The position numbers and the translations under genes are program-made. Positions 44,720 to 45,358 of a DNA stretch of 64,000 bases are shown in pieces. Every line of letters begins with the position of its first letter. Position 1 is the first letter of the stretch. Where the stretch lies: assembly GCF_056746865.1 (NCBI RefSeq), contig NZ_CM163382.1. The stretch is one strand, 5' to 3'. The notes under the pieces were generated by a model that was not told the origin of the DNA, searched no databases, and saw nothing but the letters and a program-made list of their open reading frames with translations.

Positions 44720-44896
44720 GTGAAACAAAGCGAGTTCAGACGTTGGCTCGAATCTCAGGGCGTCGATGTGGCGAATGGCAGCAACCATTTGAAACTCAGG
44801 TTTCAAGGGCGACGCAGTGTCATGCCGCGTCACCCCAGTGATGAGATAAAAGAACCATTGCGTAAAGCAATCCTGAAGCAACTCGGTTTGAGTTAA
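44720..44896 (+). CDS. hicA: Type II toxin HicA, mRNA interferase (58 aa)
   Basis: GTG start 5 nt after GGAGG; translation VKQSEFRRWLESQGVDVANGSNHLKLRFQGRRSVMPRHPSDEIKEPLRKAILKQLGLS; below the ORF-track cutoff. Confidence 0.85.
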   Translation: MKQSEFRRWLESQGVDVANGSNHLKLRFQGRRSVMPRHPSDEIKEPLRKAILKQLGLS

Positions 44897-44920
44897 TCGC
44901 CAATTAAAAAGGTTAATGAC

Positions 44921-45358
44921 ATGCGAGAGACAGTCGAAATTATGCGTTATCCCGTCACTCTTACACCCGCGCCGGAAGGCGGTTATATGGTTTCTTTTGT
45001 GGATATCCCTGAAGCGTTGACCCAGGGCGAAACAGTTGCTGAAGCGATGGAAGCGGCAAAAGATGCTTTACTGACCGCATTTGATTTTTATTTTGAAGAT
45101 AATGAGCTAATCCCGTTGCCTTCGCCATTAACTAACAACGATCACTTTATTGAAGTGCCTTTAAGTATCGCCTCTAAAGTATTGCTGTTAAATGCTTTTT
45201 TACAGTCAGAAATCACTCAGCAAGAGTTAGCCAGACGAATTGGCAAACCTAAACAGGAGATTACTCGCCTATTTAATTTGCACCATGCGACAAAAATCGA
45301 CGCCGTCCAGCTCGCGGCAAAGGCGCTTGGCAAAGAGTTATCGCTGGTGATGGTTTAA
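44921..45358 (+). CDS. hicB: Antitoxin HicB (145 aa)
   Basis: Directly downstream of hicA; C-terminal HTH-like region. Confidence 0.85.
   Translation: MRETVEIMRYPVTLTPAPEGGYMVSFVDIPEALTQGETVAEAMEAAKDALLTAFDFYFEDNELIPLPSPLTNNDHFIEVPLSIASKVLLLNAFLQSEITQQELARRIGKPKQEITRLFNLHHATKIDAVQLAAKALGKELSLVMV

Follow-up and report, generated by a model that had tools for sequence, protein, structure and literature searches.

Does the short stretch at 44720-45358 of the DNA analysed here (64,000 nucleotides in all, referred to below as the window) encode a toxin-antitoxin module and, if so, is that module intact and is it already known? The initial annotation, made from the letters alone, had read it as a known hicAB module with a GTG-initiated toxin. 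According to the literature, hicAB may serve in stress response or in phage defence, or be merely a selfish element. Our analysis identifies 44720-45358 as hicAB of Escherichia coli, a chromosomal type II toxin-antitoxin operon that is intact here and sits at its usual place, with yncJ on one side and ydcR on the other; the probability is about 0.96. The module is not new: it is an ordinary intact allele and the orthologue of K-12 hicAB itself. E. coli hicAB has already been characterised genetically, biochemically and structurally, and the discovery value of the locus is therefore small. Its main use is as a clean positive control, in which a call from raw sequence proved correct, the unusual GTG start included.

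Identity and gene order of the locus

The alignment to annotated hicAB that the initial annotation had proposed gives 100% DNA identity over 951 bp (query 44500-45450) to many RefSeq E. coli chromosomes in which hicA and hicB are annotated. The same query matches 5,415 of the 5,426 complete E. coli genomes. The RefSeq annotation of one identical genome (strain 118UI) was converted to window coordinates, and the following features were placed in this way or by the evidence given with each.

42215-44176, plus strand: rlhA (RefSeq annotation of strain 118UI, converted)
44228-44262, minus strand: REP (repetitive extragenic palindrome), located where rlhA and yncJ converge and lying outside the module (core, hairpin, Rfam)
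44268-44498, minus strand: yncJ, a DUF2554 small protein and the divergent upstream neighbour (Pfam DUF2554, 177.5 bits, full length; RefSeq yncJ)
44710-44715, plus strand: hicA Shine-Dalgarno sequence GGGAGG, with 4 nt between it and the start codon (sequence)
44720-44896, plus strand: hicA, a 58-aa mRNA interferase toxin (open reading frame, Pfam HicA_toxin, PDB 6HPB_A, RefSeq)
44942-45358, plus strand: hicB, a 138-aa antitoxin and transcriptional repressor (Pfam, 6HPB_B/6HPC, RefSeq)
45437-46843, plus strand: ydcR, a MocR/GntR-aminotransferase fusion regulator and the downstream neighbour (Pfam GntR and Aminotran_1_2; RefSeq)

The order is thus rlhA, REP, yncJ, hicA, hicB, ydcR, and the gene order in K-12 MG1655 is identical. 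This order, together with the names hicA and hicB in identical RefSeq genomes, bears out the claim that the module is a known one. The two genes are adjacent and on the same strand, the toxin gene lies upstream, and a 45-nt spacer separates it from hicB (counted from 44942). All the sequence-testable defining features of the HicA and HicB families are found at the locus, and no result speaks against the identification. The GC content of hicAB is 45.5%, compared with about 51% in the flanking genes and 48.7% in the whole window. A simple promoter and terminator scan found no terminator-like site between hicB and ydcR, and Rfam gave no RNA family in or beside hicAB except a sub-threshold match related to the REP.

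Further open reading frames overlap hicA or lie opposite it, for example one of 65 aa on the minus strand (44684-44881) and one of 53 aa on the plus strand (44680-44841). We regard them as probable side effects of the hicA frame; none is annotated in the identical RefSeq genome.

A REP element and yncJ had also been claimed to lie just upstream. Both are there: yncJ is identified by the DUF2554 match and by its RefSeq name, and the REP by an exact match to the core GCCGGATGCGGCGTGA on the minus strand (44242-44257; 0.04 matches are expected by chance per window) and by a hairpin of -15.7 kcal/mol. A full-length REP consensus of 30 nt gave 0 matches because of a 1-nt length difference; the 16-nt core was found to match exactly. 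There is also a weak Rfam match, with E=0.0029 and a score under the gathering threshold, to naRNA4 at 44228-44267, a family which we take to be REP-derived.

The HicA toxin and its start codon

The initial annotation had staked its call on a HicA family hit for the 58-aa product, and such a hit was obtained: the product matches Pfam HicA_toxin (PF07927) with 34.5 bits (cut-off 27) over profile positions 3-58 of 58. It is identical at 56 of 58 residues to chain A of PDB entry 6HPB, which is named 'mRNA interferase toxin HicA'; the two differences are H29Q and C40S. The catalytic residue His23 (NGSNH23LKL) is present in the HicA of the window and in every orthologue whose hicA reads through that position; His23 is important for the RNase activity of E. 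coli HicA (PMC11594946). Ribosome-independent mRNA cleavage by K-12 HicA has been shown experimentally, as has a bacteriostatic effect of its ectopic expression (reviewed in PMC11594946). Given 97% identity to the K-12 protein, the HicA of the window would be expected to cleave mRNA independently of the ribosome and to arrest growth in the same way. Positions 29 (H, Q or R) and 40 (C, S or G) vary naturally among full-length orthologues, and therefore the allele in the window looks functional.

The reading frame runs from GTG at 44720 to a stop at 44896, exactly as in RefSeq; the claim of a 58-aa HicA frame with a GTG start was right. An ATG at 44718 overlaps the GTG and runs directly into TGA, which leaves GTG 44720 as the only usable start of hicA. 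The GTG is conserved in Escherichia and Citrobacter orthologues. The overlapping ATG of E. coli is absent in Citrobacter (CAGTG), where GTG is the sole start, and this lends the GTG call independent support. The GGAGG reported as the Shine-Dalgarno sequence is present (44711-44715), but the spacer of 5 nt given with it was one too long, as only four bases (CGAT, 44716-44719) precede the GTG at 44720. The Shine-Dalgarno sequence is conserved in seven of nine aligned Escherichia and Citrobacter sequences; two Citrobacter isolates have a G-run variant, GGGGGG.

None of HicA, HicB and YncJ gave a match in an NCBIfam scan, and identity was settled by Pfam and PDB. NCBIfam probably has no model that fits the small HicA and HicB proteins, and we regard this null result as uninformative.

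The HicB antitoxin and its start codon

Downstream of hicA, an open reading frame of 145 codons ends at 45358. Its product matches HicB_lk_antitox (PF15919; 32 bits, cut-off 27) over residues 10-72 and the helix-turn-helix family HTH_3 (31.4 bits, cut-off 23) over residues 95-141. HicB is identical at 134 of 138 residues to chain B of 6HPB and to 6HPC; the differences, N64T, S65N, H66N and V75I in the 138-aa numbering, fall by position between the Pfam matches to the HicB-like N-domain and to the HTH. The assignment of a hicB antitoxin gene following hicA thus stands on its Pfam and PDB matches and on the frame end at 45358. Its start had to be corrected: RefSeq begins hicB at 44942, which gives 138 aa, and not at 44921, where the first in-frame ATG would give 145 aa.

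The choice between these two ATGs bears on a detail of the module. Were native HicB a 145-aa protein starting at 44921, the spacer between hicA and hicB would be 24 nt, not 45. An AAAGG lies about 8 nt ahead of the ATG at 44921, this ATG is invariant in all eight Escherichia and Citrobacter orthologues, and the 145-aa form of HicB was crystallised in PDB 6U0I. Both RefSeq and the K-12 annotation, however, begin hicB at 44942, and the 138-aa HicB of 6HPB and 6HPC is folded and binds HicA. The Pfam HicB domain begins only at residue 10 of the 145-aa form; residues 3-6 of that form are the least conserved stretch, and strong conservation sets in from residue 7 on. The longer protein is therefore a doubtful proposition, though one with a real chance of being right, and the native N-terminus of HicB appears unsettled between 44921 and 44942. 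The alternative start would alter this detail only and not the identity of the locus. Within 44921-44944 the two in-frame ATGs are both conserved in eight orthologues, and two of the three PDB entries use 138 aa.

Upstream regulation

The mechanism has been established for the K-12 orthologue and would apply to the window as well. HicA would be a small toxin that cleaves mRNA independently of the ribosome, folded like a dsRNA-binding domain and with His23 as its catalytic residue. HicB would neutralise it through a folded N-terminal domain that covers His23; HicB is described as a fully folded antitoxin, and it covers His23 in 6HPB (PMC8138530). The C-terminal helix-turn-helix of HicB would bind an operator at a promoter-proximal promoter, P2, and repress it, while an upstream promoter, P1, which has a CRP-S site and is activated by CRP-Sxy, would give the full transcript and both proteins. 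Excess HicA would release HicB from the operator, so that the antitoxin is selectively replenished. In the literature, two promoters are indeed reported: P1, with a CRP-S site and activation by CRP-Sxy, serves both genes (PMC11594946, PMC8138530 and PMC6957337, reviewing Turnbull & Gerdes 2017), and P2, under HicB repression that excess HicA relieves, produces a transcript from which only HicB is made (PMC11594946, PMC8138530, PMC6957337). The P2 transcript would yield HicB only because it starts at the ribosome-binding site of hicA; the autoregulated hicAB transcript is described as truncated at that site (PMC7167474).

Three elements upstream of hicA may be placed on this scheme.

44564-44579, plus strand: candidate CRP-S site of P1 (TTTGC-AAATTA-GCGCA), of low confidence (partial match in an Escherichia-invariant block)
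44670-44687, no strand: palindrome GTAAACA-ctaa-TGTTTAC, probable HicB operator (hicO) of P2 (perfect 7-nt inverted repeat)
44693-44701, plus strand: extended -10-like element TGaTATACT of P2, with the -10 proper at 44696-44701 (read from sequence)

The palindrome is probably hicO, following the published P2/hicO model. Most orthologues from Escherichia and Citrobacter share its GTAAAC-N6-GTTTAC core, and three have single-base variants (GTAAGC, GTAATC). The -10 at 44696-44701 probably belongs to the HicB-repressed promoter P2; its counterpart in Citrobacter is TATAAT. The position of the element at 44693-44701 predicts a transcript start near 44707-44710, bordering the hicA Shine-Dalgarno sequence. 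A simple sigma-70 scan called neither P1 nor P2; P2, which escaped the scan because it has no good -35, was placed by eye and by conservation. In an alignment of the regions upstream of hicA from Escherichia and Citrobacter, the palindrome, the -10, the Shine-Dalgarno sequence and the GTG are kept, apart from single-base or G-run variants in a few sequences, whereas sequence farther upstream diverges between the genera. The arrangement of these four elements fits the published two-promoter model as far as can be judged from the sequence, and a by-product of this work is that the comparison supports where P2 and its operator have been placed.

P1 is less clear. The intergenic region holds no convincing full match to CRP-S, with scores of only 6-7 of 10 core bases. 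The candidate at 44564-44579, the best match within an Escherichia-invariant block, agrees with TGCGA-N6-TCGCA at 6 of 10 core bases and has one good half-site, GCGCA; in CRP-S sites, one half-site is poorly conserved (PMC6728893).

Comparison with known systems

The closest characterised system is hicAB of E. coli K-12 (b4532/b1438; PDB 6HPB, 6HPC, 6U0I), which shares the locus and its neighbours with the window and is about 97% identical to it in DNA. The Shine-Dalgarno sequence, the GTG start, the palindrome and the -10 are identical. The allele in the window differs by H29Q and C40S in HicA, N64T, S65N, H66N and V75I in HicB, and three base changes upstream, which lie outside recognised elements. 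The two substitutions in HicA and the four in HicB probably leave function unchanged, and no functional difference from K-12 hicAB is predicted for the allele in the window.

HicAB3 of Yersinia pestis and the HicAB systems of Burkholderia pseudomallei and Streptococcus pneumoniae share the toxin-first order and a small HicA with a catalytic His (PMC11594946). The HicB proteins of these three species share an N-terminal partial RNase H-like fold and a DNA-binding domain (PMC11594946). A sequence search of PDB chains (E<=0.01) gave no match to the HicAB proteins of Y. pestis, B. pseudomallei or S. pneumoniae. Detailed work on an arrangement of two promoters exists for E. coli hicAB only (PMC11594946). 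Similar regulation is found in toxTA of Haemophilus influenzae, in which a CRP-S/Sxy promoter is combined with an antitoxin-repressed downstream promoter that gives antitoxin only (PMC6957337). The resemblance is regulatory only, however, as toxTA belongs to unrelated protein families (the toxin is RelE/ParE-like).

Loss of hicA within E. coli

Toxin-antitoxin systems show an uneven distribution across E. coli phylogroups (PMC7167474 and papers cited there). The loss of hicA was counted with a query of hicA only over 5,426 complete E. coli genomes. Junction-specific 60-nt queries were unusable for counting deletions, as their halves joined across intact alleles. The hicA-only query gave three classes.

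Full-length hicA: 3,442 genomes (63%)
Partial hicA match (22-bp deletion class): 811 genomes (15%)
No hicA match: 1,173 genomes (22%)

More than a third of complete E. coli genomes are thus without a functional hicA through two recurrent deletions, a result of the census which is a by-product of this work. The hicA of the window was compared with L003 (NZ_CP082087) and L004 (NZ_CP025251). In the 22-bp deletion allele, hicA is annotated as a frameshifted pseudogene and hicB is intact. The other deletion, of 445 bp, begins within the operator palindrome and ends halfway through hicB, of which only a 3' pseudogene is left; it was seen in all eight sampled rows of the reduced-coverage class and accounts for all sampled examples without hicA.

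In K-12-type alleles a 4-bp direct repeat, TGCG...TGCG, borders the 22 bp that are deleted, and this points to replication slippage as the origin of the deletion. The allele in the window (44834-44859) has AGTG at the site of the first repeat, in the Ser40 codon, and is without that microhomology. A different and rare rearrangement is found in a swine isolate of E. coli (L005, NZ_CP062203; 4238-7619), in which two IS91-family transposase genes follow yncJ and replace hicAB and ydcR; the next gene past the IS91 copies is a truncated narZ.

The rlhA-ydcR interval in related genera

Loci anchored on YdcR were retrieved from 80 species of Enterobacteriaceae, one from each, and RlhA, YncJ, HicA and HicB were mapped onto them. 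Among these 80 loci, only those of Escherichia (L006-L009) and of some Citrobacter (L010, L011, L018) have hicAB immediately upstream of ydcR; three loci (L012, L013, L021) have hicB remnants only, and hicAB is absent from this position in Klebsiella, Enterobacter, Raoultella and others. The gap between rlhA and ydcR ranges from 0.31 kb (313 bp, L079) to 3.9 kb (Citrobacter).

This variability across genera gives partial support to the remark in the initial annotation that the region is an insertion-prone patch. Within E. coli, the variation seen consists almost entirely of deletion of hicA or hicAB sequence, with the one IS91-disrupted example described above.

The interval between yncJ and ydcR in Citrobacter also carries genes for cytochrome bd oxidase subunits I and II (L010, 2570-4983, minus strand; L016, 3423-5848), which are absent from the same interval in E. 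coli. The hicAB cassette of Citrobacter is bracketed by a direct repeat, CATAACAGTT, seen in L010 at 5068-5077 and 5922-5931; in L012 a form of the repeat, AACCATAACAGTTG, brackets the hicB remnant at 5738-5751 and 5915-5928. It belongs to a palindromic sequence that lies upstream of ydcR, and a single copy is present in L016 and L025, which lack hicAB. This pattern is consistent with the cassette having been either inserted or precisely deleted there. Around hicAB of E. coli, a search for direct repeats like those that flank the Citrobacter cassette found none.

Broken toxin genes are found outside E. coli as well. L007 (5285-5460) and L017 (about 5270-5440) each have a frameshift in hicA, and L008 (5285-5458) has a nonsense codon at W9 and an upstream 11-bp deletion that removes the -10 of P2; hicB is intact alongside in all three. 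The decay is toxin-first: hicA breaks before hicB in the genomes of other Escherichia and Citrobacter species.

Functional state of the module

It might be asked whether the module, though present, has lost function in the window as well, with a toxin that has been weakened or inactivated by H29Q and C40S. The hicA reading frame is intact, its GTG, Shine-Dalgarno sequence, -10 and palindrome are those of K-12, the catalytic His23 is in place, both Q29 and S40 are seen individually in further full-length HicA orthologues, and RefSeq annotates hicA as an intact gene. Decay at this locus is therefore extremely improbable, even though natural inactivation of hicA is frequent (811 of 5,426 E. coli genomes have the 22-bp frameshift deletion and 1,173 have no hicA) and nonsense or frameshift alleles are found in the Escherichia and Citrobacter genomes just described. 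The allele in the window is also a minority one: at an identity of at least 99% it is found in 182 genomes, where it is intact.

The losses may be viewed from the side of the antitoxin. The toxin gene has been lost or broken repeatedly and independently, by the 22-bp and 445-bp deletions, by nonsense changes and by frameshifts, in E. coli, other Escherichia and Citrobacter, while hicB or its HTH-coding 3' half stays beside ydcR. What stays behind could be a decaying remnant; HicB could instead have a regulatory role that is independent of the toxin, for example on the adjacent ydcR. We think the latter unlikely, with the odds strongly against it. If it were true, the intact allele in the window would represent the ancestral form of a module undergoing domestication. 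An ordinary, intact hicAB operon remains the preferred reading of 44720-45358.

Other features of the window

A second REP-like core, ACCGGATACGGCGTGA, with two mismatches, lies at 61184-61199 on the minus strand. An Rfam scan of the whole window gave two further matches, both about 15 kb upstream of hicAB and both on the minus strand. One is the small RNA RydC (92.5 bits) at 28633-28696. The other is the sok antitoxin RNA (111.5 bits) at 29256-29407, which implies a type I toxin-antitoxin locus of the hok/sok kind.
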